From Thermoplasmatota archaeon (lineage in GTDB: Archaea; Thermoplasmatota; E2; JACPAO01; JAHFTW01): a stretch of DNA of 64,000 nucleotides. Positions 3,106 through 62,551 of the stretch are shown here, piece after piece; the first letter of the stretch is position 1; every line of letters starts with the position of its first letter. The notes below the pieces were generated by a model, which was not told the origin of the DNA, searched no databases, and saw only the letters and a program-made list of their open reading frames with translations. Location of the stretch: assembly GCA_041601615.1 (NCBI GenBank), contig JBFIHX010000001.1, positions 224,001 to 288,000 on the forward strand, given 5' to 3'. Position numbers and translations under genes: made by a program.

Positions 3106-5226
3106 ATGGACCGAGAGGCTGTCACCGCCCCCATTGCAATGAGCGTGGCATTCTCCATCTTCCTCGTTGCCTTTGGCGCCGTCGCCCTCAAATCAAGCAG
3201 TGTGGGTGATGGAAGCGCCGGCAACGAAGCCGATGCTGCTTACCTCAGCGCCAAAGCCGGCAACCTGCTCGACGTCATGCTGCAAAGCCCCGGCTACAGC
3301 ACGGGAGGACTCGACTGGATCAGCCCAGAAGGACAATCCGGCCGCGAAGACACCATCACGCGACTCGGACTGCGCAACGCCGCGGGCTCCGGCCTCTCCT
3401 TCGAGAAATTCGAAAACCTACGCCTCGCACCCTACTCCGACGACGGCACCGGCGACGGCTTCGTCAACTACGAAGACGCGCGCGCGGCGCTCGGTCTCGA
3501 ATCCGAAGGACTCGGATTCCACATCCGCGCCAAACCCAGCCTCAAATCGGTCCAACAGATTCTAGAATCCGGCGAACGCGACCCGAACCTCAAAGTCACC
3601 TACTTGGGCGACTCCACCGGCGACGGCGACGACCCTTCCCTAACCCCGCCATCGGTTTCGGCACCCACCTGCACCCTCGACGGGAGCGGCAAGACCTACA
3701 CGCTCGCAGCCACGGTGGAAAACACAGGGACGCAGCCCACACAATTTAGCGCCTTCATCACCATTGATCCCCCCTCCGGCAGCAAACGCACAGAATGGGC
3801 CCATGGCCCCATCGTTGCTGCCTCCGGCACCACCGTGCTCCAAACCACCGTCCCCGTCGACAAGGACTACTGCAAGGCCAGCGCAAAAATCACCTTCGAC
3901 GTCTGGGACCCGAGCCAACGCTGGGCCACCGCCACGACCACCATCGCAATCGATGTCGGCGGCACGGAGCACACCCGCGACCTGATTATTGACGCCAGCA
4001 AGAGCCAGTACACAGAAGGAGCAACCGTTGTGCTTGCCTACGACGGAACGGGACTCGGCAACAACGACGCCCTCGCGTTCACGCTGCTCAACGAAACCCT
4101 CGCCGTCGTAACTGGACCGCACGGATTCACCGCAGGCAACAACAACCTCCGCTCCATTCAAGTGGGCGACGTGACCGCCGGTACCCGTGCATTCAACACC
4201 GGCGGCCCGCTTCCAGCAGGCTCCTACACGGCAACACTCACAGACGGCACCGTGACCGTGACCGAACAGGTGCACATCTTTGCCTCCGGCTCCGAGCCCG
4301 GCAATTTCGCAGCCAGTGGCGCATCAGGCACCTCTGGACTAACGGCGGGCGCCATCACAGAAATCACATTCCTCCACGACCTCGTCGAACGATTCTGCCC
4401 CTTCGAGTACGATGACTCCGCAACCAAACTCGTACCCGACCGCACCGGCGACCCAAGCCCCACGCACACCGAACGCTGCAGCTTCTCACCACGTTTCCAG
4501 GACGGCGACGTGATTCCAGACCAGAAAGATGTCATGAACGACGAACTTCCCCTGCGCCTGCTGGATGCCAACGGCGACCCCACCTTCACCTATGTGACCA
4601 TGCTCGTGGTGGGCAGCAACGTCGACCACCAAGTCATGACCTCCGCATCCGCCAAACACGCCGTGCGCGACTGGGTGCTCGGCGGCGGCACGCTCGTGGT
4701 GTTCGGCTCCAGCGAGCAAACCGTGCAATGGCTGCAACCCATCTTCCACGCCGGCATCCAAAGCAGCAGCGGCGGCGTCGCCACCCCCGATGCCGACCAC
4801 CCGCTCCTCGTCGTCAGTGATACGCTGGACTACGACGGCTACAGCAGCCATGGCAAAGTCTGGGACCTCAAAGAAAGCGGCGGCAGCTCAAGTGCAGACA
4901 AATTCACAGATGTTGTCGAAGACGGAGCCGGCGACGCCATCTTGACCATCAGCGACCCGGGCGCCTACGGAAAAGGCACCGTGATTCTCTCGACGTGGAT
5001 GCCCTACGACCTCTTCGGCGATGGCAGCGACCCAGGCCTGGAAGGAGCCAAGCTCACCAACAACATCTTGATGCAAGGCTACCGTGGCCTGTTTTTGGAC
5101 TACGGCCCCTCGCTTCCCTCGGGACAACTGGTGGTCCCCGCATCGGGCAAGGCACAAATCTTCCACCCGGAACTCAACCGACTCGTCAGCTTGGACATTA
5201 CCCTGTTCGTGTTCAAGCAGTCCTGA
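3106..5226 (+). CDS. Large pilin-like surface protein (class III signal peptide; C-terminal GATase-like alpha/beta domain)
   Basis: MDREA|VTAPIAMSVAFSIFLVAFG. VRDWVLGGGTLVVFGS and FLDYGP motifs are shared with two downstream paralogues. TATA-like TTTTATC about 25 bp upstream. Confidence 0.75.
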   Translation: MDREAVTAPIAMSVAFSIFLVAFGAVALKSSSVGDGSAGNEADAAYLSAKAGNLLDVMLQSPGYSTGGLDWISPEGQSGREDTITRLGLRNAAGSGLSFEKFENLRLAPYSDDGTGDGFVNYEDARAALGLESEGLGFHIRAKPSLKSVQQILESGERDPNLKVTYLGDSTGDGDDPSLTPPSVSAPTCTLDGSGKTYTLAATVENTGTQPTQFSAFITIDPPSGSKRTEWAHGPIVAASGTTVLQTTVPVDKDYCKASAKITFDVWDPSQRWATATTTIAIDVGGTEHTRDLIIDASKSQYTEGATVVLAYDGTGLGNNDALAFTLLNETLAVVTGPHGFTAGNNNLRSIQVGDVTAGTRAFNTGGPLPAGSYTATLTDGTVTVTEQVHIFASGSEPGNFAASGASGTSGLTAGAITEITFLHDLVERFCPFEYDDSATKLVPDRTGDPSPTHTERCSFSPRFQDGDVIPDQKDVMNDELPLRLLDANGDPTFTYVTMLVVGSNVDHQVMTSASAKHAVRDWVLGGGTLVVFGSSEQTVQWLQPIFHAGIQSSSGGVATPDADHPLLVVSDTLDYDGYSSHGKVWDLKESGGSSSADKFTDVVEDGAGDAILTISDPGAYGKGTVILSTWMPYDLFGDGSDPGLEGAKLTNNILMQGYRGLFLDYGPSLPSGQLVVPASGKAQIFHPELNRLVSLDITLFVFKQS

Positions 5227-5437
5227 GCCCGGCGCCATCCATTCCAACACCACGAGCCCGCCGCCAAGCTTGAGACAGCGCCCGATTGCACTCGAATCCA
5301 GAACCCCCGCAGGCGGCTCACCGACCCTTCCGGATGTTTCACAGTATCATTATATACAAGAAAATTTTTGGGAAATCCTATTTAAATTCATTGGCACGGC
5401 GGTATAAGCTCCACCGCCGCAGCACACCCCATAGACC

Positions 5438-6844
5438 ATGCAACGACGCGGCCATGAATCCGAAGCAGTGACACAAGTCGTCTCCTTCATCGTAGCCAGC
5501 GCATTCTTCCTCGCCGTCTTTGGCGCCCTCCTCATGGCCACCACCGATGCATCCAGTGCAGACGGCAACCAAATCCAAGACACCCACAACCGCCTCGAAG
5601 CCGAACGCATCGCAGACCTCCTCGCCGGCAGCCCCGGCACCGGCTGGGTCGCCGGCCCCGAAGCCGTCACCCGACTCGGACTCCAATCCGCAGACGGCAG
5701 CCAACTCGACAGCTACCGCCTCGACGCCCTGCGCGGCGCCGTGTACGACCACGACCCCACCAACAACAAAGTCGACTACCTCGACGCCCTCGCCAGCATG
5801 GGACTACCCACCGACGGCAGCGTCGGCTTCCACCTGCGCATGACCCCCGTCGGCCTGCAAAAACAACTCCAAGCCGCCGACCTCAGCAACATCCGCACCG
5901 CCTACATCGGCGACTGGCCCGGCGTCAACCTCGACCTCACCGTAGCCCTTGGCAGCGACGACGCCATGGTCGCCGACGCCCGCGCCCAAATCGACACCCA
6001 AATCGACTTCCTGACCTCCCAAGAACGCGCCGTCATCGACGCCATCGGTTTGGGATTTGACGACCTCGTGGACCTCAACAGCGCCCAACTAGACGTGGAC
6101 CTCGGCCTTGGTGTCACCGTCCCACTCGGCACCGTCCTCTCCAGCACCGGCCTCCTCGACGGCGACGTCTACGTCGACCAAAAACAATACCTCGACATCG
6201 TCCTCGGCAACGACCTACCCAACTACGACCTCCTCATCATCGGCAGCACCGTTGACCAATCCAGCCTCACCAGCGCCGCCGTCAAACAACCCATCGCCGA
6301 CTGGGTAATGAACGGAGGCACCCTGATGGTCATGGGAAGCTCCACGCAGAACTTCCAATGGCTCGAACCCCTCTTCAGCGTCGGCACCACCACCGTCAAC
6401 GCCGCCCCCGCAGCCCCCGACGTAAGCCACCCCATGCTCCACGAACCCCACGAACTCGACTGGCCCAGCTACGACAACTTCGACCTCGCCTGGGACCTCA
6501 AAGATGCAGGAGCAATAGCCAGCTTCGACAAATTCCAACACATCATCACCTCCGACGGCGAAGACATCCTCGCCGTCAGCAACGAAGGCGCCTTCGGAGA
6601 CGGCCGCATCTTCCTCACCAGCTACCGCCCCGAAGACATCGCCGGACAACTCGACGTAATCGAAGCAGGCAACTTCGTCAACAACCTCGTCCTATACAGC
6701 GACCGCGCCCACCTCTACCTCGACTACGGCCCCACGCCCCCTGACAACGCCGCCGTCAGCGCCGCCGTACGCACCAGCCAAATCCACGACGCCGACATCG
6801 GCATGGTCAACGTCCGCCTCACCATCCTCTACTGGGGCATCTAA
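5438..6844 (+). CDS. Pilin-like surface protein, paralogue 2
   Basis: ESEA|VTQVVSFIVASAFFLAVFG; IADWVMNGGTLMVMGS; YLDYGP; C-terminal VRLTILYW. Confidence 0.8.
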   Translation: MQRRGHESEAVTQVVSFIVASAFFLAVFGALLMATTDASSADGNQIQDTHNRLEAERIADLLAGSPGTGWVAGPEAVTRLGLQSADGSQLDSYRLDALRGAVYDHDPTNNKVDYLDALASMGLPTDGSVGFHLRMTPVGLQKQLQAADLSNIRTAYIGDWPGVNLDLTVALGSDDAMVADARAQIDTQIDFLTSQERAVIDAIGLGFDDLVDLNSAQLDVDLGLGVTVPLGTVLSSTGLLDGDVYVDQKQYLDIVLGNDLPNYDLLIIGSTVDQSSLTSAAVKQPIADWVMNGGTLMVMGSSTQNFQWLEPLFSVGTTTVNAAPAAPDVSHPMLHEPHELDWPSYDNFDLAWDLKDAGAIASFDKFQHIITSDGEDILAVSNEGAFGDGRIFLTSYRPEDIAGQLDVIEAGNFVNNLVLYSDRAHLYLDYGPTPPDNAAVSAAVRTSQIHDADIGMVNVRLTILYWGI

Positions 6845-6961
6845 CCCCCGGAGCCGCTCCTCCCCTCCCCCACCCAACCAAGTAGCAAAACCGGCCCCGG
6901 CTCCCCATATAGCCTCTTTGAGGGAGCACCTTAAGCCGCCGAGCCACATCAAATGGGGTCC

Positions 6962-8383
6962 ATGCGCCGCGCACGGATGGACCACGAGGCAGTCAGCCAA
7001 ACATTCGGATCATTGGTCGCCCTCACCGTCTTTCTTGGATTTTTTGGCGCCCTCATCATCGCCACCAGCGAACCAAGCACCAGCAACGTCAAAGACACCC
7101 AGAACCGCCTCGAAGCCGAACGCATCGCCGACCTGCTCGCTGGCAGCCCCGGCGTCGGCTGGGACACAGGTGCCGACAACCTAGCCCGCCTCGGCCTCGT
7201 CGACCCCGCCACCCACCAAATCAACTTAGCACACCTAGAAGCCCTCCGAGGAGCCAGCTACCAAGCCAACGCAAACAACGGAAAAGTGGACTACGAAGAA
7301 GCCCTTGCAAGCCTCGGACTGCCCACCGACGGCAGCCTCGGATTCCACCTACGCATGACACCCGTCGGCTTGCAACAACGACTCCAAACCGCCAGCCTTG
7401 CCCACATCGACACCGCCCTCATCGCCGATTGGGAAAACACACCGCGAACCTTCACCGTCACCCAATCCACGGATCAAACCATGGTCAACGACGCCCGCGC
7501 CCAAGTGGACGCTACCATCAGCTCCCTGACCCAACACGAACGCGACACCATCGCCAGCCTCGGCGTAGGCTACGACGACAATGTCAACCTATGGGGATTC
7601 ACCATCACCGCAGTCCACCCCATCACCGGCGCCAGCACGCCCCTCGCCGACGCAATGTCCGATCCAAGCCTCCTCGACGGCGACTTGTACATCGACGACA
7701 AACAATACCTTGCATTCCAACAAGCCTCCAGCAAAGGACTCCTCGAAGACCAACTGCCCGCCTACGAAGTGCTCATCATCGGCAGCACCGCCGCCCAATC
7801 CAGCCTCACCAGCAACAACGTCAAACAACCCATCGCAGACTGGGTCATCGCTGGAGGAACCCTCATGATCCTCGGAAGCAGCAGCCAAAACTACCAATGG
7901 CTCCAACCACTCTTCAGCGTCGGCACCACCACCGTCAACGCCGCCCCCGCAGCCCCCGACGTAAGCCACCCCATGCTGCACGAACCCTACGAACTTGACT
8001 GGCCCAACTACGAACACTTCGGCATTGGCTGGGATCTCAAACAAAATGGCGCCCACGCAAGCTACGAGCAATTTCAACACGTCATCACCTCCGGCAACAA
8101 AGACCTACTGGCCGTCAGCAACGAAGGCGCCTTCGGAGCCGGCCGCGTGTTCCTGACCGCCTACCGACCTGAAGACATCTTCATCGACCAAGGCGCTCCA
8201 GAAGCCCACAACTTTCTCAACAACCTCGTCATCTTCGGTGATCGATCCTACCTCTACCTCGACTACGGCCCCACCCCACCCGACAACGCCATCGTGAGCG
8301 CAGCCGTACGCACCACCCAAATCCTCGACCCCAACCTAGGCATGATCAACATCCGCCTCACCATCCTCTACTGGGGCACCTAG
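6962..8383 (+). CDS. Pilin-like surface protein, paralogue 3
   Basis: MRRARMDHEA|VSQTFGSLVALTVFLGFFG; colinear and highly similar to 5438-6844. Confidence 0.8.
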   Translation: MRRARMDHEAVSQTFGSLVALTVFLGFFGALIIATSEPSTSNVKDTQNRLEAERIADLLAGSPGVGWDTGADNLARLGLVDPATHQINLAHLEALRGASYQANANNGKVDYEEALASLGLPTDGSLGFHLRMTPVGLQQRLQTASLAHIDTALIADWENTPRTFTVTQSTDQTMVNDARAQVDATISSLTQHERDTIASLGVGYDDNVNLWGFTITAVHPITGASTPLADAMSDPSLLDGDLYIDDKQYLAFQQASSKGLLEDQLPAYEVLIIGSTAAQSSLTSNNVKQPIADWVIAGGTLMILGSSSQNYQWLQPLFSVGTTTVNAAPAAPDVSHPMLHEPYELDWPNYEHFGIGWDLKQNGAHASYEQFQHVITSGNKDLLAVSNEGAFGAGRVFLTAYRPEDIFIDQGAPEAHNFLNNLVIFGDRSYLYLDYGPTPPDNAIVSAAVRTTQILDPNLGMINIRLTILYWGT

Positions 8384-8564
8384 AGCAATCGTCACCAAAA
8401 CCGCAACACGTCACGAAACTGCAACGCCAAATACGCCGCAAACGCCGCCAAAAACAACAACAGCACAATCCGCACAAACCACACCGGCTCCTCCGGCCCC
8501 GCCGACCCCGCTGCATTCGCCGGCTCCGCTGCACGTTCGGCCACGACCCGCCCAACGAACCATT

Positions 8565-8572
8565 CCTATAAA
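8565..8572 (+). promoter_or_regulatory. Archaeal TATA-box candidate for tyrS (probably leaderless transcript)
   Basis: CCTATAAA about 25-30 bp upstream of the GTG start in a GC-rich context. Confidence 0.55.
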
Positions 8573-8595
8573 CCGCATCACCCTCCCCGTTCCTC

Positions 8596-10581: not shown

Positions 10582-11592
10582 ATGGACCCGCGCCCATTCC
10601 ACACCGTGTCCCGCGTCGTCGTTACCTGGACCCCGCAAGCCGGGGAACGCGAGGTCGTCGAAGAAAATCTTGGCGACGACGCAGAATGGGCCACGGACGG
10701 CGCGGACGCATGCAAAGCAGAGGGACTCCTGATGTTCTGGCCGCGCCAGGAACTTCGCGCGCTGGGCCTCGAATGGAACGAACTCGCTGCGGGATGGGTA
10801 AAACTTGCAACCGCCGGCGCCAACCACGTCGGCTGGCACCCCGGCCCACCCATGCCTGTCCTCACCACCCCCGGCGCCACGGCCCCAGCCATCGCCGAAT
10901 ACATCCTCGCCAACATTCTCTCCTGGACACGAGGACTCACCGCACACACGCGAAGCATCCGTGGCGGCCACTTTGAACAAGGAGCGCCCATACGCGGACT
11001 CTCCGAATTGCGCATCGGCCTCGTGGGCTACGGCGGCATCGGGCAAGAAACCGCCCGCATCTTGCACTTGCTTGGAGCAACCGTGGAAGCAGTCAGCCGC
11101 AGCGGCAAAACCACCTCCGAAGCAAGAAAGAACATCAGCCACCTTGCCACCATCCAGGAACTCCCCGCCATGGCCGGCCGCGTGGATGTGCTCGTGCTGT
11201 GCCTGCCGCTGCACAAAGACACCGTCGGCCTCGTAGATGCTGCCCTACTCGAAGCATTCGCAGACGGACTCCTTGTCAATGTGTCCCGAGGCCCCGTAGT
11301 CGACGAAGACGCCCTCTACACTTGGCTCCACACAGACAAAACCCGCCGCGCCGCCGCACTCGACGTATGGTGGCGCTACCCCCGCGGCATCGGCTGGCCC
11401 TTCCGACGCCCCTTCGACCAATTGCCCAACATCACCATGACCCCCCACAACAGCCCCAACATCGCAGGCTTCCGACTCGGCATGCTCGAGGCAGCATGCA
11501 AAGATATCCGCGCGCTGCTTGACGGCGGAGACCTTGCACATGTGGCAGACCCCGAGGCACACCGGTTGGAGATTGAAGGGGATGGGCGCTGA
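10582..11592 (+). CDS. D-isomer-specific 2-hydroxyacid dehydrogenase family protein
   Basis: GLVGYGGIG Rossmann motif, LVNVSRGPVVDE, AALDVW and TPH. Confidence 0.88.
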   Translation: MDPRPFHTVSRVVVTWTPQAGEREVVEENLGDDAEWATDGADACKAEGLLMFWPRQELRALGLEWNELAAGWVKLATAGANHVGWHPGPPMPVLTTPGATAPAIAEYILANILSWTRGLTAHTRSIRGGHFEQGAPIRGLSELRIGLVGYGGIGQETARILHLLGATVEAVSRSGKTTSEARKNISHLATIQELPAMAGRVDVLVLCLPLHKDTVGLVDAALLEAFADGLLVNVSRGPVVDEDALYTWLHTDKTRRAAALDVWWRYPRGIGWPFRRPFDQLPNITMTPHNSPNIAGFRLGMLEAACKDIRALLDGGDLAHVADPEAHRLEIEGDGR

Positions 11593-11605
11593 AGGCCGTG
11601 AAATC

Positions 11606-11910
11606 CTACAACCCCACCATCTTCATCGACATCTCTGCCACTCGACAGGCGTAGCCCCATCCATTCGACCTTCAAAAAGATCGACCATTTTGGGCGGCCC
11701 TCGCCCCGCTCGACCACCCGGGCAACGTCAACCTGCCATCTTCATCGCCATCTCTGCCACTCGACAGGCGTAGCCCCATCCATTCGACCTTCAAAAAGAT
11801 CGACCATTTTGGGCGGCCCTCGCTCCGCTCGACCACCCGGGCAACGTCAACCTGCCATCTTCATCGCCATTTCTGCGACCCGACACGCATACCCCCATTC
11901 ATTGTCGTAC
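11606..11910. repeat. 119-bp tandem repeat (about 2.5 units) containing copies of the gap 3' end
   Basis: Equivalent positions at 11641, 11760 and 11879; each unit reads WGYACRVAEMxMKM on the minus strand. Confidence 0.95.
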
Positions 11911-12848
11911 CATGCGAGTACCTTGACCATGTCGTCATTGAGCTGGAGTGCCGGCAGGTCCACCACCGCGGACCTTGGATCATGCGTGAAGTCTACGGAC
12001 ACCAGCGGCGCCTCCTCGATACCCAGAATGCCCTCCATTGGCCCAAACGCGGCGGCCCGGAACGCTTCCTCTAGATCCTCCTTGCTTGGCGATCGTTTCA
12101 GATGGGCCGTGAGGTCAATGACGCTCACATCCGCCGTCGGTACGCGCAGAGATTGGCCCGTGATGCGGCCGTCCAAGTGGGGCAATATCTTGCCGATGGC
12201 TGCTGCGGCGCCGGTCTTTGTTGGAATCATGCTCAATAGGCTTCCACGGGCCCGGCGCAGGTCCTTGTGCGGTGCATCTGCGACGTGCTGGTCGTTGGTT
12301 ACCGCGTGCACCGTGGTCATCATGCCGCGATGGACTCCAAACGCATCGTCGAGGACCTTCAGAACGGGTGCTAGGCAATTTGTGGTGCAACTGGCGTTGC
12401 TGACCAAGTAGTGTTTGCTCGGGTCGTACTGGTCATCGTTGACGCCCCGCACCACCATGAGGTCTGTGTCTCCTGGCGCGGTGAGCAAAACTCGGTCCGC
12501 CCCTGCGTCTAGGTGCTTTTGCAGTGCTGGCCGCGTGGTGTGCCTGCCGCTTGCCTCGATCACCACTTGGGCGCCGAGATCTTGCCAGGGCAACTGGGCG
12601 GGATCAGGAATTTGCAGCACGCGTAGTCGGTCGCCGCCAATGACAAGCCCGTCGTCCGTTACTTCCACGGAGTCTGGGTAGCGGCCGTGCACGGAGTCAT
12701 AGCGAGTCAAATGCGCTAGAACTTCCTTGTCGGTCAGGTCGTTGACCGCCACGAAATCCACTGGACCCATTTGCTGCAACGCTCTCGTAACGAGTCGCCC
12801 GATGCGCCCAAAGCCGTTGATGCCGATGCGGGGCCCCTCGCCATTCAT
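11847..12848 (-). CDS. gap: Glyceraldehyde-3-phosphate dehydrogenase, class I (bacterial/eukaryotic type)
   Basis: INGFGRIGR, SNASCTTNCLAP, PTKTGAA, RVPT and WYDNEWGY. Confidence 0.96.
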   Translation of the reverse strand: MNGEGPRIGINGFGRIGRLVTRALQQMGPVDFVAVNDLTDKEVLAHLTRYDSVHGRYPDSVEVTDDGLVIGGDRLRVLQIPDPAQLPWQDLGAQVVIEASGRHTTRPALQKHLDAGADRVLLTAPGDTDLMVVRGVNDDQYDPSKHYLVSNASCTTNCLAPVLKVLDDAFGVHRGMMTTVHAVTNDQHVADAPHKDLRRARGSLLSMIPTKTGAAAAIGKILPHLDGRITGQSLRVPTADVSVIDLTAHLKRSPSKEDLEEAFRAAAFGPMEGILGIEEAPLVSVDFTHDPRSAVVDLPALQLNDDMVKVLAWYDNEWGYACRVAEMAMKMAG

Positions 12849-18689: not shown

Positions 18690-20363
<1,674 letters not shown>

Positions 20364-20428
20364 ACAACCCCGTTCGACGGTGATGGGGCAATCACTGCCC
20401 TTAGGAGGTCCTGCTGTGTGCCGCGCTC

Positions 20429-24404: not shown

Positions 24405-27137
24405 TCATCGCTCCGAGCGTCGCCACGCTACGCCCGGTGTGCGCGCTTTCCATAGAATCCAACCAATACCGCCGAGGCCTGCGACACCGGCTGCGGCGAT
24501 GCTGACCCAGAGCCAAGTAAGGCTTCGGGGCGGTGGCGGCGCGGGGGGAAGTTGGGCCGGAGGTAGAGCAGGCGGAGCCGGGGCTAGGAGCGGGTCGGTG
24601 CCGGCGTCCAATTCGAGGCGGTCGGAGATTCCGTCGCCATCTGTGTCTGCGCGCTTTGGATTCGTTCCCAGGATGGCTTCTTGATCGTCCGTGAGGCCGT
24701 CGTTGTCGTCGTCGGGGTCCGAGTTGTCGCCGATGCCATCCCCGTCCGTATCCACTTGCTCGTTTGGGTCTAAGGGGAAATCATCGTCGCCGTTGGCAAC
24801 ACCGTCCCCATCCGCATCCTCGCCTGGAAGGAGTTCTTCGCACGCGTCTCCAATGCCGTCTTTGTCTGCGTCGGCTTGTGCTGGATCGGGGTGGTCTGGA
24901 CATACGTCGAGGCCATCCGGTACGCCGTCTCCATCGCGATCCACGGCGGTGCCAAGATCGGCGGGGCGGACATTGCGCACGATGGTGGACCGGGCGCCTT
25001 GGTCGTCGGTCACCGAAAACCGGACTTGGTAGGTCTGGCCTGGGTCGGCAAAGGTGTGCTTGGTGGTTTCTTCGGCACTGCTGGAGCCATCGCCAAATTC
25101 CCATGCAAACGCCACGAGGTGGCCGTCCGAATCCGTGCCTTGGCTTTGGAATGCGACGGTTCCTGGTTCGCCTTCCACAAGGAACGCAGAAAGAGCCGCG
25201 ACGGGCGAGGTGTTGAGGACCCGCACTGCCACCGTGGCCTCGCCCACTCCGCCGTATTCATCGTAGGCGAGGGCCTTCACCGTGTGGGTTCCCACCATGG
25301 AAAAGGAGTGGCGGACGTTCATCCCTTCCAGCTCCTTGCCTTCGAAGGTCCAGACACAACGGCGCACTTGATCGCCGTCGAGGTCCGAGGCGTTGCAGGC
25401 AAATTCGTAGGCGTACCCGGTGGCCAGCAGGACCGGTTCTGTGACGCCAATTTGGACCGTGGGTGCGTGGTTGAGGATCTCCAGCACCCGGCAATCACGG
25501 TCCGTGCTGCCGGCATCGTCCTCCACTTCGAGGCACACCAAGTACGATCGGCGCTCCTGGAAAATTTGTGCCGCCTGGCCTGCCTTCAATTCGATTCCGT
25601 CGACAGTCCATGTGCGTCGAACGAGGGTACCGTCCGGATCAACACTGTCGTCTGCGAAGTTCACCTCTTCGTTGGGCCATGCTTGGACGGGCACTTCGGC
25701 CACAGCCTTGGGCGGGTCGTTGTCAATGACCACATCCTGAACGACGCTGGTTTGGGCGCCTTCGTTGTCTGTGACCGTGAGTCGCACGGGGTAGGTGCCT
25801 CTGGCCGGGAAGGTGTGTTTGAGTTCCTTCTTCGTGCCATCGACAGTTCCGTCATCATGAATGTCCCATTGCAGGGATTCCACGGTACCGTCGGCGTCCG
25901 TGCTTGTGTCGGTGAAGGTCCAGGGGGTGCCTGCGTCGCTGCGGCCAGAGGATTCAAAGGACGCCACTGGCGCGATGTTTTGCACGCGCACGATGTGCAC
26001 TTGGCACGGTTCGGCGACTCCGCCCAAATCGTCGTGGGCTAGAAACAGCAGCACCTCGTCGTCGTTGCCATCGATGGGAACTTGGACATGGAAACGCGCC
26101 GGATTGCCCTCGGCCAGTTCCACAAAGCTGGACCCAGGAGGAAGGTCGGGGGCGGCGATGGTGACATAATCGCCCTCGGGGCTCCTTGCTGCCACCTCGA
26201 ACGAAATGGTTCCATGCACGCGGGACGTCAAGGTCTCTCCGCAAGGCGTTGGCTCCAACCACTCGGGCGGTGCAGGCGCAGAATCGGACAATCGAATGAA
26301 GAAATCCACGGGCACTTTGCCCCGGTCATCCGTGATGCTGACTTGGGCAGAGTACAGCGTTGTGTCGTAGGAACTGGCCAGCGTGGCACCCCGAGTGTTC
26401 CAGGTTATGACGCCAGTCTCGGAGTCGATGGCGGCGGCGTTGGGTGCGTCCGGGGGTCCGGGGGGACGGAAGCTGCTGCCAATTTGTTGCCCAGTCACTT
26501 CGCTGATTTCATCTTCTCCCGCCGATTTGCCCGCACCTGCTTCCTCCGCATAGGCAAAGGAGAATACCGGATTCTTAGCCACGGTCGGGACTCGGAAGGT
26601 GCAGTCGCCCTCGATGGGGCAGTTGATGAAAGGCGGCATGAAGGCGCGGGGAGATCGAGTGGCCGTGACGCCGTCCAATTCCACGTACGTGCGGAAAATC
26701 ATGTTCTGGTCAGGATTGTTGACATGGTTGTTGCCGAGGCGCGCGTTTGCAGTGTGGCTGACAATCCATGCTTCCCCCTCGGCGGGCGGTTCTTGGAATA
26801 AGATTCTCGGTTTCGAACCGTCTTCCATTTGCATTTTGGCCGCGAACCAATCGTCACGCTCATTGACATAAGTCACGATCCAATCGAAGGAAACGGAGCC
26901 GCCCCCGCTACTAAGAACGCCAGATTGAATGGAGGCTCCGCGCTCGGGCGTCGCGCCATAGTAGGACGTACGGGCCAGAAACGATCCGTCAAACTCCACT
27001 TCCAAGGGATCGTCCAGGGTGCGCCACTCCAGGGAACCGCCTCGAAGATGCGAAGCCTCTGCGGAACCTGCTAGCAACAACAACGCAAAAGCGAGTGCAG
27101 AAAAAAGAAAAACAACGCCCCGCACGCGCCGAACCAT
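24405..27137 (-). CDS. Cell-surface protein with PKD domains, thrombospondin type-3-like Ca-binding repeats and C-terminal TM anchor
   Basis: Signal peptide then SHLRGG; several WDF/WEFGDG...LTVTD PKD units; DxDGDG repeats; Pro linker and TM. Confidence 0.85.
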   Translation of the reverse strand: MVRRVRGVVFLFSALAFALLLLAGSAEASHLRGGSLEWRTLDDPLEVEFDGSFLARTSYYGATPERGASIQSGVLSSGGGSVSFDWIVTYVNERDDWFAAKMQMEDGSKPRILFQEPPAEGEAWIVSHTANARLGNNHVNNPDQNMIFRTYVELDGVTATRSPRAFMPPFINCPIEGDCTFRVPTVAKNPVFSFAYAEEAGAGKSAGEDEISEVTGQQIGSSFRPPGPPDAPNAAAIDSETGVITWNTRGATLASSYDTTLYSAQVSITDDRGKVPVDFFIRLSDSAPAPPEWLEPTPCGETLTSRVHGTISFEVAARSPEGDYVTIAAPDLPPGSSFVELAEGNPARFHVQVPIDGNDDEVLLFLAHDDLGGVAEPCQVHIVRVQNIAPVASFESSGRSDAGTPWTFTDTSTDADGTVESLQWDIHDDGTVDGTKKELKHTFPARGTYPVRLTVTDNEGAQTSVVQDVVIDNDPPKAVAEVPVQAWPNEEVNFADDSVDPDGTLVRRTWTVDGIELKAGQAAQIFQERRSYLVCLEVEDDAGSTDRDCRVLEILNHAPTVQIGVTEPVLLATGYAYEFACNASDLDGDQVRRCVWTFEGKELEGMNVRHSFSMVGTHTVKALAYDEYGGVGEATVAVRVLNTSPVAALSAFLVEGEPGTVAFQSQGTDSDGHLVAFAWEFGDGSSSAEETTKHTFADPGQTYQVRFSVTDDQGARSTIVRNVRPADLGTAVDRDGDGVPDGLDVCPDHPDPAQADADKDGIGDACEELLPGEDADGDGVANGDDDFPLDPNEQVDTDGDGIGDNSDPDDDNDGLTDDQEAILGTNPKRADTDGDGISDRLELDAGTDPLLAPAPPALPPAQLPPAPPPPRSLTWLWVSIAAAGVAGLGGIGWILWKARTPGVAWRRSER

Positions 27138-44248: not shown

Positions 44249-44477
44249 CACCACCGGCCCCAAGCACGGCAGGAACGCGGGCGTCATTGGAGCTATGGGA
44301 AACACCGTAGCCGCCACCTCGAAGGACCAACCCTTGCAAGCATGCGACAGGAACTACAACGGCGCACCCGACGAACCACATCTGCAACCGGCCCATCCGC
44401 CGAAGGGTAACGAACACAGTTTTGCGCCCCACCGCGTCCTCTTCCTGCGCGGTCATCAATCCGTACTCGTGGTCCCC

Positions 44478-45356
44478 ATGACAACCAGCCAAATGCAACG
44501 CAAGCTCGCCACACCCAAGGAAGCAGTCGCCTTCGTCCAATCCGTCCAGCTTCCCCGCGACAGCGACACGGCCCCCAAGGCCCGGGGTTCCATCGACCCC
44601 TCCGCCGAAAAACCATCCCACGCGCCCGCTGCACCCAACAAAATGCGCTCCATCCAGGGCGAATCCGCGACGGTACCCGACGCGACCGCAAACCTTCGGC
44701 CCGACCGCCCCTCTGCCACCCTGGACGGCGCCAACCTCGTTGCATGTGTAGCCGGACTCGATGTGCAAAGCCGCCAAGACGTCATCAACTCCCTGCTGCT
44801 TGCCCAACTGGTCGCCGACCAAGCACACGACCGCGACCAAGACATGGAAGCATGGTACGACCGCTACTGCGATGTCCTCGGCAACGTCGGCTGGGCCTGC
44901 GGGTCCTTCCAATTCCAACAACACAACCTCCACGGCACCAAGGCGAACATGCAAACCCTCGTCCTCGAAGTGCTCGCCACCATCGCCACCCAAGACCACC
45001 TAGCCGCCGCCAAACTCGCCCTCGACGCCCTAGCCAAAAAAGCCGAACGAGGCGACCGCGACTTCCAAGTATGGAACAACGCCACCCAAAAAGACGGCAT
45101 CAACGTGTTCCAAATGAGCATCTGCAAAGGAGAAGGTGCCACCATTGGACTCCAATCCGCTGCTCTGCGCGTCCACACCCAAAAAGAAGACGCCCGATTC
45201 CTTTGGGCCGGCCAAACCCGCACCATCCTCCAGGTCCAAGCCGCCTCCATGAACATGCTCCTCGACAGCACCACCTACAGCGCCGTCCGCAGCCTCGTCA
45301 TCAAAAAACTAGGCCACCGACTCGCACACAACCTCACAAATCTCGACCTCGCCTAA
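44478..45356 (+). CDS. Hypothetical protein of a family familiar from bacteria and fungi
   Basis: QDVINSLLLAQLVAD...AWYDRYCDVLGNVGW pattern; start placed at ATG 44478. Confidence 0.65.
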   Translation: MTTSQMQRKLATPKEAVAFVQSVQLPRDSDTAPKARGSIDPSAEKPSHAPAAPNKMRSIQGESATVPDATANLRPDRPSATLDGANLVACVAGLDVQSRQDVINSLLLAQLVADQAHDRDQDMEAWYDRYCDVLGNVGWACGSFQFQQHNLHGTKANMQTLVLEVLATIATQDHLAAAKLALDALAKKAERGDRDFQVWNNATQKDGINVFQMSICKGEGATIGLQSAALRVHTQKEDARFLWAGQTRTILQVQAASMNMLLDSTTYSAVRSLVIKKLGHRLAHNLTNLDLA

Positions 45357-45464
45357 TGCGACTGCACTCCACCCGCACCCCCCAACGCGACCCAGCACCA
45401 CGCCCCCGGCCTCATTCCGCGCAGCACGCCGCCCAAATAGCCCCCCACCCATGTCCGACAAGCC

Positions 45465-47105
45465 ATGCGTGACGCTCTGCGTGCACACGCCCCCTCCGTC
45501 GCCGCCTTCGCCGTGATGATCGTGGTCGCCCTCGTCATGGCCGCCACCATCCAAGCCGGCGTTTTGCCCTCCAGCTCGCCCCTGCCAGCACTCCCTGCAT
45601 CTGCCCTGCCAATGCCCAGCGCCGAGCAGGACCAAGACCGAGACAGCTACGCCGACGAACTCGACCGCATCGACGGCGACCTCCATATCCGCCTCGTCGT
45701 GGAAACCATGGACGTACCAAGCAACGCCCTACCCTACCTCCAAATCGGCACCCAAGACGACCACTGGCGCCTCGGCGCCGGCGCCGAACAAGCATGGCCC
45801 CACATCGTAGACGCCGACTCGCTTGGCCACAAAGCCGGCAGCCCCGGCTGGCGAAACGACGTCCTACGCACTGGAGCATGGTGGATGAGCCAACCCATGA
45901 CCGGAGCCACCAAAGCCATCACCGAAGGCAGCATCGACCCCGACCGCGTCCCCCCCGGCGTAGTCTGGCCCCAAACCTTCTGGATCAACGTACGCGACGA
46001 TCGGCCCCAAGTCTCCTTTGTGGTCGAACTGCGCGACTCGAGACCGGACCCCGACGCACTTCTTGGCCAATGGACCCTCCACGTGGAAGTCCCCTCAGGA
46101 CTCGCCCGCCTCGACGACGGCCCCTTCCAAAGCACCAACACCACCCTCGCAGTCACTTCCGCCAAAGCCAGCCTAACGCTTCGCACCACCCTCGAAACCG
46201 GCCCCAGCCACGACGACGCACGCGCCTGGGCCGACCGCTGGGCACCCATCCTCCGCTTCGACTCCCTCGAACGATTCTACCCCGTGCGCGGCGAAGTGCT
46301 CCAACAATTCCACGGCATCGGCCGCCTCGACCCCCGCGACCAAGACCACCGCACATGGACCCGGGAATTCAACAACGCCCGCGACCCCTACATCCTCTTG
46401 CTTGCCGACTTCAACGGCGACCGCAAAACCGACCACGTCGACGCCGCCCTCCTGTACGACGTACTCGCCACCGGCCCCGTCGGCACACCCACCGTCTACG
46501 CCAGCGTACAACGCACCACCAACGACCAAGTCGCCATCACCTACTGGTTCCTCACCATCTACAACTTCGTGCGCGACGTCACCGGCAACGACATCCAACT
46601 CCTCGCCCACGCCGGCGACCGCGAATTCATCTCCCTCCTCTTCGACAACCCCGAAGAAGCGCGCAACGGCACACCCAGCAGCATCAGCTACAGCCAACAC
46701 TACCGAGGCATCCGCATCCCCAACCCCCAAGCAGGCGCCGAGCCCATGACCAACGGCACCCACCCCGACGTATTCGTTGCCCAAGGCAGCCACGCCAGCT
46801 ACCCCGTCGCCGGCGACGACCGCCGCTTCCGCTCCGCCCTCATCGGCTTCGGCGACGTCTTCGACGGCAAAGGCACAACCTGGACCCCCAACGACTACGA
46901 ACTGGAACTCCTCGAGGCGCAAGAATGGCATCTCGGATACCTCTGGGGCCCCCTCACCCGCCACAGCCGCGACCTTGGCACCACGCGCCAACCACTCCTG
47001 CAACACAGCTTCCAATACCCCTTCATCGACCCGCTCTCCTGGCACCTCAGCCTAGCCATCTTCGAAGCCGACGAACTGCACGAAGCCTACGGAGACACCC
47101 CATGA
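45465..47105 (+). CDS. Membrane-anchored extracellular protein with Vps62/NPP1-like domain
   Basis: WAPILRFDS.ERFYP, ITYWF, HAGDRE, YSQH and VFVAQGSHASY. Confidence 0.72.
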   Translation: MRDALRAHAPSVAAFAVMIVVALVMAATIQAGVLPSSSPLPALPASALPMPSAEQDQDRDSYADELDRIDGDLHIRLVVETMDVPSNALPYLQIGTQDDHWRLGAGAEQAWPHIVDADSLGHKAGSPGWRNDVLRTGAWWMSQPMTGATKAITEGSIDPDRVPPGVVWPQTFWINVRDDRPQVSFVVELRDSRPDPDALLGQWTLHVEVPSGLARLDDGPFQSTNTTLAVTSAKASLTLRTTLETGPSHDDARAWADRWAPILRFDSLERFYPVRGEVLQQFHGIGRLDPRDQDHRTWTREFNNARDPYILLLADFNGDRKTDHVDAALLYDVLATGPVGTPTVYASVQRTTNDQVAITYWFLTIYNFVRDVTGNDIQLLAHAGDREFISLLFDNPEEARNGTPSSISYSQHYRGIRIPNPQAGAEPMTNGTHPDVFVAQGSHASYPVAGDDRRFRSALIGFGDVFDGKGTTWTPNDYELELLEAQEWHLGYLWGPLTRHSRDLGTTRQPLLQHSFQYPFIDPLSWHLSLAIFEADELHEAYGDTP

Positions 47106-48028
47106 ACGCCCCGGAACCCACCACGGCGCGACCCAATATCCTCCACCACCCACGCATACAAGCCGCATGGGAACGCATCGCACAAGCCCTCCACGCCATC
47201 CACGGCAGCCGAGGCATCCTCGCCGGTTCCCTGGGCCTCTTGCTGCTCGGCCTCGCAGACCCCGCCCTACCCCGCGACCTCAACCGCACCCTCCTCACCG
47301 GCCCGCTCCTGCTCGTGCTCATCGCCGGCCTCCTCACACTCGCCCGCGAAGGAGTCGCCACCCAACAACGCGCCCGCACCCTACGCAACGACGAAACCGC
47401 CACGCGCAAAATGACCCGCCGCCTCCTCTGGCTGCTGCCCCTAACCCTGCTGCTCTCCCCACGCATCTTCCTTGCCGCCTACGGCGTCCCGCACCTGAAC
47501 CCACTCACCGGCGTCATCTTCCCCGACACCCAACGACACCTCGCACTCCTGTTTCTGTTCCTCCTCATGCTCCTTGCTGCCATGTACCTACGAAGCAGCA
47601 AACGCTACGCCCCCCACATCCGCAGCCGCCGCCCACGCGACCTGCCCCACGAAGACCTCAGCCACCAAGAACGAGACTGGCTCCTCTGGATGGTCATCGG
47701 CATAGCACTCGCCTGGGGCTGGCTCCTGCGCCCCTTCTGGCACCCCTTCAGCCTCCTCCAATGGCCCCCCAGCCTCAACAGCCTCCAACAAGGAGCCGCA
47801 GGCGTCGGCGCCCTCGCCTTCAGCCTCGCCATCCCCATGATGCTGTTTCTCAACCTCGCAAGCCACCTCAGCCTCCTACGAGACATCCAAATAGCCGGCA
47901 CCTGGCACAAAGACCGCCACATCGCCGCCATGGCCGCCATCCACGTCACCCTCTCCCTCACCGCCATCATCCTCCACGCCTACGACTTGCTGTGGATTGC
48001 GCAATACCGGAGTGCGGTCAGATTCTAG
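47102..48028 (+). CDS. Multi-pass membrane protein
   Basis: ATGA overlap with the upstream gene; about 7 hydrophobic segments. Confidence 0.7.
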   Translation: MNAPEPTTARPNILHHPRIQAAWERIAQALHAIHGSRGILAGSLGLLLLGLADPALPRDLNRTLLTGPLLLVLIAGLLTLAREGVATQQRARTLRNDETATRKMTRRLLWLLPLTLLLSPRIFLAAYGVPHLNPLTGVIFPDTQRHLALLFLFLLMLLAAMYLRSSKRYAPHIRSRRPRDLPHEDLSHQERDWLLWMVIGIALAWGWLLRPFWHPFSLLQWPPSLNSLQQGAAGVGALAFSLAIPMMLFLNLASHLSLLRDIQIAGTWHKDRHIAAMAAIHVTLSLTAIILHAYDLLWIAQYRSAVRF

Positions 48029-48113
48029 CGCCAACGCTGCGCGTTGGCGGCAGTACGGGGCCCTCCAGCGCCAACGCTGCGCGTTGGCGGCAGTACGGGG
48101 ACCTCCGGTCCCC
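48027..48113. repeat. 40-bp tandem repeat carrying perfect hairpins (REP-like or terminator-like)
   Basis: agcgccaacgctgcgcgttggcggcagtacgggg at 48027 and 48067; stem cgccaacgc/gcgttggcg; second hairpin ggggacc-tcc-ggtcccc. Confidence 0.85.
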
Positions 48114-58473: not shown

Positions 58474-58501
58474 ACGCCCGCGGGGAGCGCGCCCCGCGTG
58501 A

Positions 58502-59662
58502 TTACCCGCGAGCCTGCAACGGCAAGCTGCTTTGCCAAGCAGCCCCGGCAAGATCCACGCGACGCACGGGCACACGTCCGTCGGGCCCACGCAGATCTTC
58601 AAAGCGAAGCACGCGGGTTGTGCCACCGGCCACAGAAATGAGCCCGTTGCCCTCGCCCTCGGCTAGGAACCGCACCGCCTCGCTGCCCAGCATCCGCGTA
58701 TACTGGACATCGAAGGCCACAGGGTCAGCGCAGCGCAACTCATAGCCAATGATCTTGGTGACGAATCCCACTTTTTGCCCGGCTGCCGCCAGGCGCGGCG
58801 CCAAGTCATCACGCACGGCTCGACCCAGGTCAATCTCCGACATGCGCGGATTGCCGTGCTCGTCTAGCTCCAGGCTCGCAATGCGGCGAAGATCGCCTTC
58901 GGTCAAGCGCTCCAAGAGGCCTTCCGCCAACACCACGAGGCCCCAGTCTTGGCCCTCGGATCGGCGCTGGGCGATGGCTGCTGAAACGAGGTCCACGATG
59001 CGAGAAAGAGGAATCGGCTTGTCTTCGCCAAACTCTTCGCGAATGATGCAAAGGTCTGCGCCGCTGCCCATCGCCATGCCAAGACTGAGGTGCCCCGCAG
59101 ATCGGCCCATGGCCGTGACAAGGTACCAGCGATTCGTGGTTTCGGCGTCCACACGCAGGTATGTGCACAACTTGGCGCCAAGGTCCTTGGCTGTTTCAAA
59201 TCCGAACGTGGGAGCTTCGTCCGGCAGCGGCAAGTCGTTGTCGATGGTCTTGGGAACATGCGCCACGCGAAGCGTCAAACCCTCTCTTGCAAGTGCCCCC
59301 GCGACGGCCGCTGCACTCGTCGCCGTGTCGTCGCCGCCCACCGTCACCAAGCCATCCAAACCGAGCGCCTTCACAGCATCCACGACGGTCTGCATCGATT
59401 CCGGGGACTTCTTGGGATTGGCGCGATTTGTAAACAAAATGCCGCCGCCACGGGTCTCAATGCCCGCCACGTCGTTCGCGGTCAGTTCGCGGCAGGCACT
59501 GATATCGCCGGCCATGAGGCGACTGTAGCCATACGGAATCCCCACGACAGTCCAACCACGAGCAAGTGCTGCGAGGGTTACGCTGTTGATGACGCCGTTG
59601 AACCCAGGTGCTGGGCCGCCGCCACAGAGGATGCCGATCTTCACAATGCGCGGACCTCGCAT
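58502..59662 (-). CDS. pfp: Phosphofructokinase (PfkA superfamily), PPi-dependent signature
   Basis: GGGPAPGFN, GGDDT, PKTIDND, MGR and GYELRC. Confidence 0.85.
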   Translation of the reverse strand: MRGPRIVKIGILCGGGPAPGFNGVINSVTLAALARGWTVVGIPYGYSRLMAGDISACRELTANDVAGIETRGGGILFTNRANPKKSPESMQTVVDAVKALGLDGLVTVGGDDTATSAAAVAGALAREGLTLRVAHVPKTIDNDLPLPDEAPTFGFETAKDLGAKLCTYLRVDAETTNRWYLVTAMGRSAGHLSLGMAMGSGADLCIIREEFGEDKPIPLSRIVDLVSAAIAQRRSEGQDWGLVVLAEGLLERLTEGDLRRIASLELDEHGNPRMSEIDLGRAVRDDLAPRLAAAGQKVGFVTKIIGYELRCADPVAFDVQYTRMLGSEAVRFLAEGEGNGLISVAGGTTRVLRFEDLRGPDGRVPVRRVDLAGAAWQSSLPLQARG

Positions 59663-59726
59663 TGCGTCAAGAGTGCTGCGGCTGCCGATGCCGCCGATTC
59701 GTACGGTTTCCCCGCTGTGCGGCGTG

Positions 59727-61466: not shown

Positions 61467-61519
61467 GTTCGCTGAGGCTCCGTTCTTCAGGTAAACCTTG
61501 GGGCCGATTCACCCGTAGC

Positions 61520-62551
61520 CTACGCGGCGACGAACGTCTGCCCAAGCGCTGCGGCGCGGTTGGCTTCGCAGCGTTCCTTGAGCAGCGCTTGCGCCTTGCT
61601 GTTGTTGGCTTTGTCGCCGGCCCATGCGTTCAGCGCGGGTTGTTGAAGCGCGCGTCCGTAGCTGAAGCTGAGCTTCCAGGGCTTGGCGCCGAGAGTGTTC
61701 ATGATGCGCAGGTGCTCGGTTGCTTCCTCGGGGCTCTGGCCGCCGCTCAAGAAGACAACGCCGGGCACACTCGCAGGCACACAATCCAGTAGGCCAATCA
61801 TGGTGCGGCGGGCGACTTCTTCGGCGTCGGCGCGGCCCTTCGCGTTCTTGCCGCTGATGATCATGCTGGGTTTCAGGAGGATGCCGGGCAGGTAGATGCC
61901 ATGGTCCTTGAGGGCCGCAAATAGGCAGTCCCAGGCCATGGTGGTGACCGCTTCGCAGGTGTCCACATCGTGGTCGCCGTCCATCAGCACCTCGGGTTCG
62001 ACAATCGGAACGATGCCCGCTTCTTGGCAAAGCGCGGCGTAGCGGGCAAGACCGTGGGCGTTGCCGACCAAGCAAGCTGTGCTGGGAATGTCTTCGCCAA
62101 TGGTGATGACGGCGCGCCACTTGGCAAACCGAGCGCCCATTCCGGCGTACTCCTTGAGGCGGTCGCGCAGGCCATCGAGACCTTCCGTGATCTTTTCGCC
62201 GGGGTGTCCGGCAAGGTCCACGGCGCCCGTGTCGACCTTGATGCCGGGGTAGATGCCGTTTTGCAGCAGAAGCTCCGGGATTGCGACGCCGTCCGTGGTA
62301 CTCTGGCGAATCGTTTCGTCAAACAAGATGACGCCAGCGACACTGTCGCCGAGGCCGGGCGTGGAAAACAGCATGGCGCGGTAGTCGCGGCGCGTGTCGG
62401 GGGTGCTCGGAATGCCAAGGGCGTCGAAGCGCTTGGTGCAGGTGCCATTGCTCTCGTCGGCTGCAAGGATTCCCTTCCCTTCGGCGACGAGGTACTGGGC
62501 GGTCTCGCGAAGGCGTGCGGTGTCCATGGCTGCGGGCATAGAGACCACCAT
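61520..62551 (-). CDS. fba: Fructose-bisphosphate aldolase class I (glycolytic/eukaryote-like family)
   Basis: GKGILAADES, GIKVD, FAKWR, VPIVEPE, LLKPSM, FLSGGQ and SFSYGRALQ. Confidence 0.95.
   Translation of the reverse strand: MVVSMPAAMDTARLRETAQYLVAEGKGILAADESNGTCTKRFDALGIPSTPDTRRDYRAMLFSTPGLGDSVAGVILFDETIRQSTTDGVAIPELLLQNGIYPGIKVDTGAVDLAGHPGEKITEGLDGLRDRLKEYAGMGARFAKWRAVITIGEDIPSTACLVGNAHGLARYAALCQEAGIVPIVEPEVLMDGDHDVDTCEAVTTMAWDCLFAALKDHGIYLPGILLKPSMIISGKNAKGRADAEEVARRTMIGLLDCVPASVPGVVFLSGGQSPEEATEHLRIMNTLGAKPWKLSFSYGRALQQPALNAWAGDKANNSKAQALLKERCEANRAAALGQTFVAA

Follow-up and report, generated by a model that had tools for sequence, protein, structure and literature searches.

Behind gap, the glyceraldehyde-3-phosphate dehydrogenase gene of an uncultured marine archaeon of the Thermoplasmatota, lies an array in which copies of the gene's own 3′ end alternate with a small non-coding hairpin element. 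The array belongs to the 64,000-nt stretch of DNA analysed here as a whole (hereafter the window), which is G000:C1:224001-288000 of a 2.79-Mb assembly in 30 contigs (62% G+C, 93% complete). Throughout, G000 denotes this genome and G002-G023 its relatives, C numbers are contigs of G000, and L numbers are fetched loci or contigs. We call the displaced copies echoes, and the end that still belongs to the gene the live end.

The live gap gene occupies 11847-12848 on the minus strand in our own gene call (Pfam Gp_dh_N, E 1e-33; Gp_dh_C, E 2e-55), and its array is described on that strand. The echoed stretch, defined by repeat search and from the sequence, is the live gene end A, comprising the last 18 codons and TGA (11847-11903; peptide NEWGYACRVAEMAMKMAG and stop). 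A 62-nt spacer follows (11785-11846), made up of 8 locus-specific nt and then a type-1 two-hairpin element, E1 (G000:C1:235783-235840), which was found with nhmmer and scores 74.3 bits with covariance model R1; the consensus fold has compensatory pairs and the loop of the second hairpin has a T5 run. Next comes echo 1 (A′, 11728-11784), a 57-nt stretch with an intact frame, NGWGY...MAG, ending in TGA, with 7 base differences from the live end, 6 of which are synonymous. Spacer 2 (11666-11727, 62 nt) is one base off spacer 1 and carries a second copy, E2 (nhmmer; model R1, G000:C1:235664-235721, 73.5 bits). Outermost is echo 2 (A″, 11606-11665), which has another C-terminus (NGWGY...MSMKMVGL) and its own TAG; the two echoes show a single difference in their first 49 nt and then divergent ends. 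The repeat search accordingly returns a 49-nt stretch three times, at 11617-11665, 11736-11784 and 11855-11903 (100, 98 and 84% to the reference copy), and a unit of period 119 is present twice, the copies being 98% alike. Echo 2 has no element behind it and directly abuts the flank of the convergent neighbour, a D-2-hydroxyacid dehydrogenase gene on the plus strand (10582-11592; Pfam 2-Hacid_dh_C), so that the array fills the entire 254-nt interval between the two genes.

Separately built Logan contigs carry the same joints. The path from echo 2 through the element to echo 1 is bridged by X1, X3 and X4 (11630-11778) and that from echo 1 through the element to live gap by X2 (11749-11870), in neither case with any differences; all four runs come from one study, and X1 may be the assembly's source sample, which limits the support they lend. 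No Logan contig has a joint that skips an element at gap, and these contigs drop rare variants and so are silent on element-free cells. The exact 24-nt flank of gap was matched by none of the metagenome contigs scanned. In the same-genus genome G002 about 30 nt separate gap from its neighbour, and this interval has neither element nor echo; identity is 70% and the C-terminus differs, so that a single target cannot be aligned base by base.

The sequence-only reading had proposed that an ongoing process leaves copies of gene termini past stop codons. We aligned the last 120 nt of every gene with the 250 nt downstream (local alignment, +2/-3/-5/-2), using a crude gene set built from codon log-odds and greedy frame choice (2499 genes, 82.6% of G000); stop positions are independent of start choice, hence this set is adequate for tail tests. 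A score of at least 40 was reached by 25 of 2155 tails, compared with 0, 0 and 0 in three controls, and by 3 gene starts set against their upstream DNA (25 vs 3, binomial p=3e-5). At a score of at least 30 the tails gave 40/2155, tails of other genes 1 and 3, the reverse-complemented tail 5 and gene starts against upstream DNA 15/2145. When the scan was extended to 3 kb downstream, 35 tail matches began within 250 nt of the stop, compared with 8 head and 3 reverse-complement matches over the whole 3 kb; beyond 250 nt the tail matches come from tandem paralogues, whose heads score just as well. Inspection by eye removed seven of the 35 (C1:370249, C11:4793, C6:59828, C3:224285, C10:65488, C4:97245 and C2:292589), where the match falls in an acidic ribosomal tail, a repeat protein or a small paralogue next door; 28 loci remain. 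Tandem Repeats Finder (TRF) likewise places 10 repeats of period at least 40 across a stop in G000 and one across a start. The proposal thus holds in kind, and genome-wide.

In this genome and its relatives about one gene in eighty carries an element and, behind it, a dead second gene end. The repeats in G000 measure 21 to ~270 nt (57 nt at gap), with periods of 65-271 nt, and about 7 further, older echoes, read by eye from the list, are detectable at the protein level only, two of them with internal stops. An age series had been suggested; identities do run from 100% down to these protein-level echoes, some with internal stops, while the divergence is not the simple ageing of a duplicate, as shown below. 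The suggestion that the process builds intergenic DNA stands on a small scale only, the 28 loci adding ~4.4 kb or 0.16% of G000. Twelve of 25 echo loci, gap included, face a convergent gene, compared with 754/2467 (31%) genome-wide (p=0.05).

Within the window, gap is the only such locus. Echoes had been read by eye at many window genes, and of the nine named cases gap alone survives the comparison with 300 tails of other genes aligned to the identical downstream stretch (p<=0.003). The string pairs noticed at the 3106-5226 gene (5188 and 5267, 5188-5283, plus strand; p=0.78), pyrG (20333 and 20406, 20333-20422, plus strand; p=0.76), the IscA-like gene (52464 and 52477; p=0.44) and the 36905 gene (36918 and 36838; p=0.42) are present at chance level, and neither mrp (p=0.87) nor fba (p=0.66) departs from the control; moeB has the lowest p among the failed cases (0.043). 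Altogether 6 of 50 window genes, gap included, reach p<0.05 against mismatched tails, where 2.5 are expected. A protein-level version, which aligns the last 40 residues with the three downstream frames and is expected to be more sensitive to synonymous drift than the DNA version, again singles out gap (score 93); the next scores, 34, 32 (pyrG) and 32, lie within the control range (p95 32, p99 37). Behind the 47102-48028 gene (p=0.35) the downstream stretch is a hairpin doublet and holds no copy of coding sequence: from the stop of that gene, at 48027-48106 on the plus strand, a 40-nt hairpin unit (CGCCAACGC…GCGTTGGCG plus tail) stands twice in the sequence (TRF period 40, 2.0 copies, 97%).

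What had escaped the sequence-only reading is that the spacer is a recurring element of two hairpins and that the joint falls at its 3′ end; it is therefore this element, rather than transcription termination or slippage alone, that is the common factor. The elements form repeat families, the 3′ end of the element is the joint, the inner edge of the repeat lies near the stop, and arrays consist of n elements and n+1 gene ends, as at gap, C1:22912 and C5:31677. A type-1 module of ~55 nt with two hairpins is common to the spacers of nine G000 loci, copies at different genes being 80-93% alike over ~55 nt. Two spacers used as blastn-short queries gave 9 matches only and profiles were needed for more; an nhmmer profile finds 22 type-1 copies in G000, 17 of which sit 2-239 nt behind a same-strand stop and 16 of which have flanking direct repeats. 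The type-1 consensus fold, drawn from 15 copies, comprises two separate hairpins, and in 6 of its 16 pairs both sides have changed. The second family, TCGTCGGCC…CCCTA, is equally numerous (22 copies, 11 with flanking repeats), and several contigs end in it; it emerged when an alignment meant for a 'type 2' element converged on this narrower group. The remaining spacers are GC-rich hairpins. Inserts measure 45-190 nt and have no reading frame. Over the 28 loci, 40-nt windows ending at the joint fold with a mean of -14.6 kcal/mol, as against -7.6 in 801 matched controls (p=8e-11), and equally strong hairpins stand without an echo in about one in ten control 3′ regions. At four loci (C11:45296, C7:30555, C1:420416 and C5:31677) a degenerate element copy was seen by eye behind the last echo.

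A loop motif, GAGCGNAGCGAG, occurs 32 times in G000 where ~2 are expected, 29 of these being intergenic; in the window it lies at 11819-11830 on the minus strand. It is found on hairpins with quite different stems, in several element families and in part on the low-GC contigs C16, C21 and C25, and may be a putative shared binding site. Because of the T run in the type-1 loop, the element may also act as a terminator. Rfam returned no match at gathering score in the window, the best E-value in 11550-11900 being 0.66. Arrays of the type-1 element or tandem repeats lie as well at the 5′ ends of tRNA genes, at C2:114747-115092, C14:35615-35766 and C5:116251-116518, adjoining the class-II tRNAs tRNA-Ser(tga) (C2:115087), tRNA-Leu(taa) (C14:35799) and tRNA-Leu(caa) (C5:116512), in antisense at the C2 and C14 sites. 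To the eye, the first hairpin of the type-1 element (GGGTGGCCGAGCG…) resembles the acceptor/D-arm start of class-II tRNAs.

The two copies differ as alleles do. Over the 28 loci, differences at codon positions 1, 2 and 3 number 22, 16 and 98, so that 98/136 (72%) fall at third positions, and 89 synonymous codons stand against 32 non-synonymous ones; over all 35 loci the counts are 56, 43 and 154, and in relatives 13, 14 and 55. A freely drifting outer duplicate should have no more than about half of its differences in third positions, and a share of 50% is rejected both in G000 (p=1e-7) and in the relatives (p=1e-3). The stop codons at matching places are the same in 15 of 25 loci and different in the other 10, three of these by two bases. 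The third-position excess and the differing stops imply that the two copies served as working gene ends for most of the time since they separated. Past the stop, similarity is at background in most single-echo loci. There are also pairs of live end and echo identical over 21-56 nt beside unrelated flanks at several loci (e.g. 34/34, 38/38 and 56/56), and at C2:306676 (103 nt) and L156 the repeat reaches the element with non-coding bases included. Joints show 0-2 shared bases by eye. Read from these substitution patterns, young echoes appear to preserve another allele and not a decaying duplicate, while older ones appear to decay. An attempt to assign the native copy by orthologue identity (two loci, 13 genomes) was abandoned: live end and echo were both 70-81% identical to all, the tails being saturated.

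Moreover, the arrangement is widespread in the family. Model R1 has matches in 17 of the 24 other genomes of the family, in 0 of 6 genomes from other families of the order and in 0 of 10 from the rest of the class. Fifty-five copies were fetched from the 17 genomes, drawn from 30 loci returned by the search and 20 further high-ranking ones chosen by us; a flank repeat scoring at least 30 accompanies 39 of the 55 (15 of 17 genomes). In 32 of these 39 the echo begins 1-6 nt past the 3′ end of the element, and the repeats are 19-127 nt long (at least 30 nt in 35/39). At the 27 relatives' loci with a long upstream frame, the upstream copy extends beyond the stop by a median of 4 nt. Tandem element arrays occur in G002, G012, G020 and G023. 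At L153 the element lies behind a tRNA gene, which is echoed from the anticodon stem to its 3′ end, and translation therefore plays no part. A Joint Genome Institute (JGI) contig, L233, the sole contig to match a 27-nt element pattern in the metagenome scan, has a gene end, the element right after the TAG and a 56/56 echo. An 18-nt degenerate core was matched at 118 loci in genome contigs; among the best 80 of the 118 almost all are chance matches in unrelated bacteria, L089 being the sole Thermoplasmatota archaeon.

One locus can be followed across species. The orthologue of G000 C3:71666 in three species of another genus, g4, has the same joint and a 51-nt repeat that includes the TGATG overlap of stop and next start, with a fixed difference of AGG in the live end and CGN in the echo; the shared joint and this fixed difference show that the structure predates the species and was inherited. 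In G014 and G018 the middle stretch exists in two variants that have traded places between live end and echo, the echo of G014 being nearly identical to the live allele of G018 and the reverse, and in G021, also of genus g4, live end and echo share a unique Leu codon. Both observations indicate that, once a single founding event had occurred, the copies exchanged sequence or the live end was replaced more than once. In G000 the echo at C3:71666 starts from the same codon as in genus g4, but its second hairpin is another one and the echo is broken in frame in its 5′ part.

No responsible enzyme had been seen in the window, and none is visible across G000 as far as it was searched. Y1_Tnp/HUH, OrfB_IS605, TnpB zinc-ribbon and RVT_1 gave no match in G000, which at 93% completeness leaves absence unproven. 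Three tyrosine-recombinase matches (Phage_integrase; C16, C13 and C8) lie beside none of the listed echo loci, and the window has no integrase or recombinase gene. A single DDE_Tnp_1 gene was considered and set aside: it is IS5-like, below the family cut-offs, not near the loci and not IS1634-like, and its ends were not compared with the element.

Taken together, the comparisons above indicate that the phenomenon is real, family-wide and tied to hairpin repeat elements, and that it is a scar of insertion or recombination at gene ends. The basic unit would read: gene end and stop, 0-60 nt, element, gene end again with its stop, old flank. Echoes would then be the outer copies of long direct repeats (~20-270 nt) flanking small non-coding hairpin elements behind gene ends, and they are not themselves translated. 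We rank first, while holding it tentatively, a founding event linked to the element with a long target duplication, followed by unequal crossing-over and allele turnover. In this scheme a rare founding event would lodge the element behind a gene together with a target duplication, through staggered breaks, template switching at the hairpin or a homology-anchored illegitimate joint. Arrays such as that of gap would grow by unequal crossing-over between the flanking gene-end copies, which accounts for n elements with n+1 ends. The live end would later be overwritten by other alleles through homologous recombination, and stretches would also pass between live end and echo, which accounts for young echoes differing mostly at synonymous sites and in the stop codon; echoes left alone would decay.

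Several points weigh against this scheme. No empty-site allele was found, relatives being 70-84% identical with saturated tails, and none of the enzyme classes sought (transposase, reverse transcriptase, HUH) could be linked to the elements. The type-1 consensus fold shows no terminal inverted repeats and no pairing between the two ends of the element. Several single-echo loci have 8-60 locus-specific nt between stop and element that are not repeated behind the echo, and plain target duplication would not lead one to expect this. The edge of the repeat lies near the stop, though a duplication at the DNA level has no reason to respect a stop, and the 72% of differences at third positions require the extra assumption of later allele turnover. 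Five type-1 copies are not placed behind a gene end; they lie antisense next to tRNA-Ser and tRNA-Leu genes, at the 5′ end.

Of the alternatives, we regard import as the strongest, possible though on balance unlikely. Here a diverged relative's gene end, with its stop, 3′ flank and element, would recombine into the gene, anchored within the gene and joined illegitimately at the 3′ end of the element, and the displaced resident end would become the echo; the route could be homology-facilitated illegitimate recombination (HFIR) or the integration, by a single crossover, of a small circle that had come out of an existing array. Allele replacement, with its illegitimate joint beyond the stop, had been among the mechanisms first proposed; it fits much of the evidence, and import ranks second here. 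The allele-like differences (22/16/98 by codon position; 89 against 32 codons) follow without extra assumptions, and so does the right edge of the repeat at the stop (median +4 nt), which is expected if homology between alleles ends with the coding sequence. Also in favour of import are the differing stop codons in 10/25 loci, the locus-specific stretch between stop and element, the background similarity past the stop in most single-echo loci, and the near identity of the G014 echo with the G018 live allele and the reverse. Import needs later gene conversion to explain identical pairs (34/34, 38/38, 56/56) beside unrelated flanks, and it is weakened by repeats that take in non-coding bases or the ATG of the following gene (at C2:306676, at L156 and at the genus g4 locus); among 13 genomes no orthologue at two loci is nearer to the live end or to the echo, so that a donor cannot be named, and one element family behind at least nine different genes is left unexplained. 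Founding duplication and import may also be stages of one cycle. More doubtful than import is the bolder idea that the hairpin modules are a new miniature mobile element without an enzyme of its own, moving as a unit of replacement gene end plus hairpins. It would home into the same gene of other cells by the host's homologous recombination, across the species and genera of the family and perhaps wider, each visit leaving the end of the previous allele as a dated fossil, and the GAGCGNAGCGAG loop would be the handle for a protein, of the host or of the element, that sets the exact 3′ end.

Four further explanations carry less weight. If the modules were conserved lineage terminators, replication could stall at the hairpin and the nascent strand re-anneal 20-270 nt upstream, sometimes on another genome copy in a polyploid cell. 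This would suit the joint directly behind a strong hairpin, the exact periods in tandem arrays, the contigs that break at such repeats and the degenerate element behind the last echo in four loci, which tandem duplication of end and terminator predicts; we nevertheless think it improbable, because arrays end in a gene-end copy with one element fewer than ends, which pure tandem duplication does not yield, elements at different genes are at 80-93% too alike for independent terminators, allele-like divergence requires a second genome, and about one in ten control 3′ regions has a strong hairpin and no echo. Very improbable in our view are remnants of integrase-bearing elements that entered the 3′ ends of genes or tRNAs with a replacement end and were then reduced by deletion to attL, stub and attR, in the manner of cis-mobilizable elements (CIMEs). 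The layout does equal attL and attR around a gene or tRNA 3′ end (L153 included), arrays resemble accretion and G000 has three Phage_integrase matches; against this, a single family stands behind at least nine unrelated genes with repeats that share no core and vary from 19 to 270 nt, no integrase lies beside any locus inspected or in the window, and the stubs are uniform two-hairpin units, unlike random deletion products. That echoes are kept for a function, for instance as an alternative gene end or as the leader or promoter region of the gene that follows, has scarcely any probability. The genus g4 echo carries the next gene's TGATG and is kept in three species, with 9 of 12 inter-species echo differences at third positions by eye, and at C4:203967 the next gene starts inside the echo; convergent neighbours are, however, over-represented (12/25 vs 31%, p=0.05), the first stop ends translation ahead of any echo, and older echoes have stops and frame breaks. 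Service to the next gene was dropped as a general explanation on the orientation count. Least probable of all is an assembly or binning artefact stringing strain variants in series. This is a metagenome assembly of 30 contigs, several of which end in perfect tandem repeats, and array copy numbers from short reads are untrustworthy; yet the Logan contigs from the four runs of the one study bridge the gap joints without differences, the same layout recurs in 15 other genomes and one JGI contig, and periods of 65-271 nt match no single k-mer size.

Many contigs of G000 end in element copies or perfect tandem repeats (C4, C5, C7, C9, C10, C11, C14, C15, C16, C18 and C22), and three element matches start exactly at position 129 (C4, C5 and C7), which points to an overlap of contig ends by one assembler k-mer; our counts of element copies and arrays are probably too low. 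Arrays of this kind break short-read assemblies. In annotation, long echoes can be miscalled as small genes: a 65-codon 'gene' called at C3:212695-212892 is the echo of the acyl-CoA dehydrogenase-like gene C3:212966-214105.

Elsewhere in the window, archaeal markers include an exosome Csl4-type N-terminus and an archaeal type IV prepilin peptidase C-terminus (Pfam). Strand composition is strongly biased and tracks gene direction throughout, with GC skew down to -0.37 and AT skew up to +0.28 at plus-strand genes and flipped signs at minus-strand genes. Two adjacent genes of ~890 aa on the minus strand (24405-27077 and 27177-29843) have PKD domains and bacterial thrombospondin-type-3 repeats; their products are probably secreted surface proteins and mutual paralogues. 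Long, confidently coding genes without a Pfam match at E<=1e-5 cluster in two runs, 1063-8383 (1542-3044, 3106-5226, 5438-6844 and 6977-8383) and 44295-48028 (44295-45356, 45465-47105 and 47102-48028). Those at 5438-6844 and 6977-8383 both encode 468 aa and have ends that match in DNA, which makes them tandem paralogues.

If our interpretation is right, the scars record gene-end turnover and recombination, each echo keeping the preceding allele, and recombination rates and donors could be read from single genomes. We found no published account of such hairpin elements or gene-end echoes in archaea, which is weak evidence of novelty. Several known systems share part of the pattern. MITEs (transposable elements of the miniature inverted-repeat kind) carry terminal inverted repeats and make short target duplications whose length is fixed, and repetitive extragenic palindromic (REP) elements are associated with RAYT (Y1) transposases and make no duplication. 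The elements described here resemble MITEs and REPs or their mosaics (BIMEs) in being small, non-coding, multi-copy, hairpin-forming and intergenic, often behind genes; unlike MITEs, they lack terminal inverted repeats, their duplications vary from 19 to ~270 nt, and, the one weak IS5-like DDE gene aside, no parent insertion sequence was found in G000. A diversity-generating retroelement is a poor comparison, as G000 has no RVT_1 match and the gap differences are of several base types, synonymous and not confined to adenine. Integrative elements that enter the 3′ ends of tRNA or protein genes produce direct repeats with the 3′ part of the gene, restore the gene with the incoming copy, accrete in tandem and leave CIMEs as remnants; here there is no integrase and no att core shared across loci, and the stubs are uniform and 50-190 nt long.

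Closer in form are recombination events at gene ends. HFIR is reportedly known from Acinetobacter and Streptococcus, and at rhs and contact-dependent inhibition (CDI) loci a new end is said to recombine in while the old, orphaned end remains as a relic. In HFIR the incoming and resident copies differ as alleles do, and so do the two copies here (98/136 differences at third positions). The displacement of type VI secretion system effectors (PMC5361080) is reportedly of this kind, the new end being anchored in the gene and the old, untranslated end staying downstream as a relic. Such C-terminal displacement involves functionally different toxin and immunity ends under diversifying selection, whereas here the same peptide of housekeeping genes is concerned and a hairpin stands at the joint. 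Long direct repeats are also made by the insertion sequences IS1549 and IS1634, for which De Palmenaer et al. 2008 (PMC2266710) give repeats of 8-514 bp, state that the mechanism of the long duplication is not known and describe the IS1634 family as common in Euryarchaeota. These are 1.5-2 kb long with a DDE transposase and terminal inverted repeats, in contrast to elements without inverted ends in a genome with one IS5-like DDE gene.

The nearest likeness is to the units described by Furuta, Abe and Kobayashi 2010 (PMC2853133). These are restriction-modification units flanked by target direct repeats of 46 to ~420 bp with no linked transposase; some of the repeats overlap a gene 3′ end, and amplification through the repeats is proposed. 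The inserts are kilobases long and occur in bacteria, mostly naturally competent ones, and the authors' screen left no archaeal case standing. The gap array and its counterparts share with that class flanking direct repeats of more than 30 bp, variable length and the lack of a linked transposase, and differ in being archaeal, in a non-coding hairpin insert of 50-190 nt without a reading frame and without a restriction-modification unit, in numbering ~28 loci per genome and in always lying at gene ends. If the comparison holds, insertion with long target duplication would extend to archaea and to tiny non-coding inserts, with ~30 natural examples per genome.

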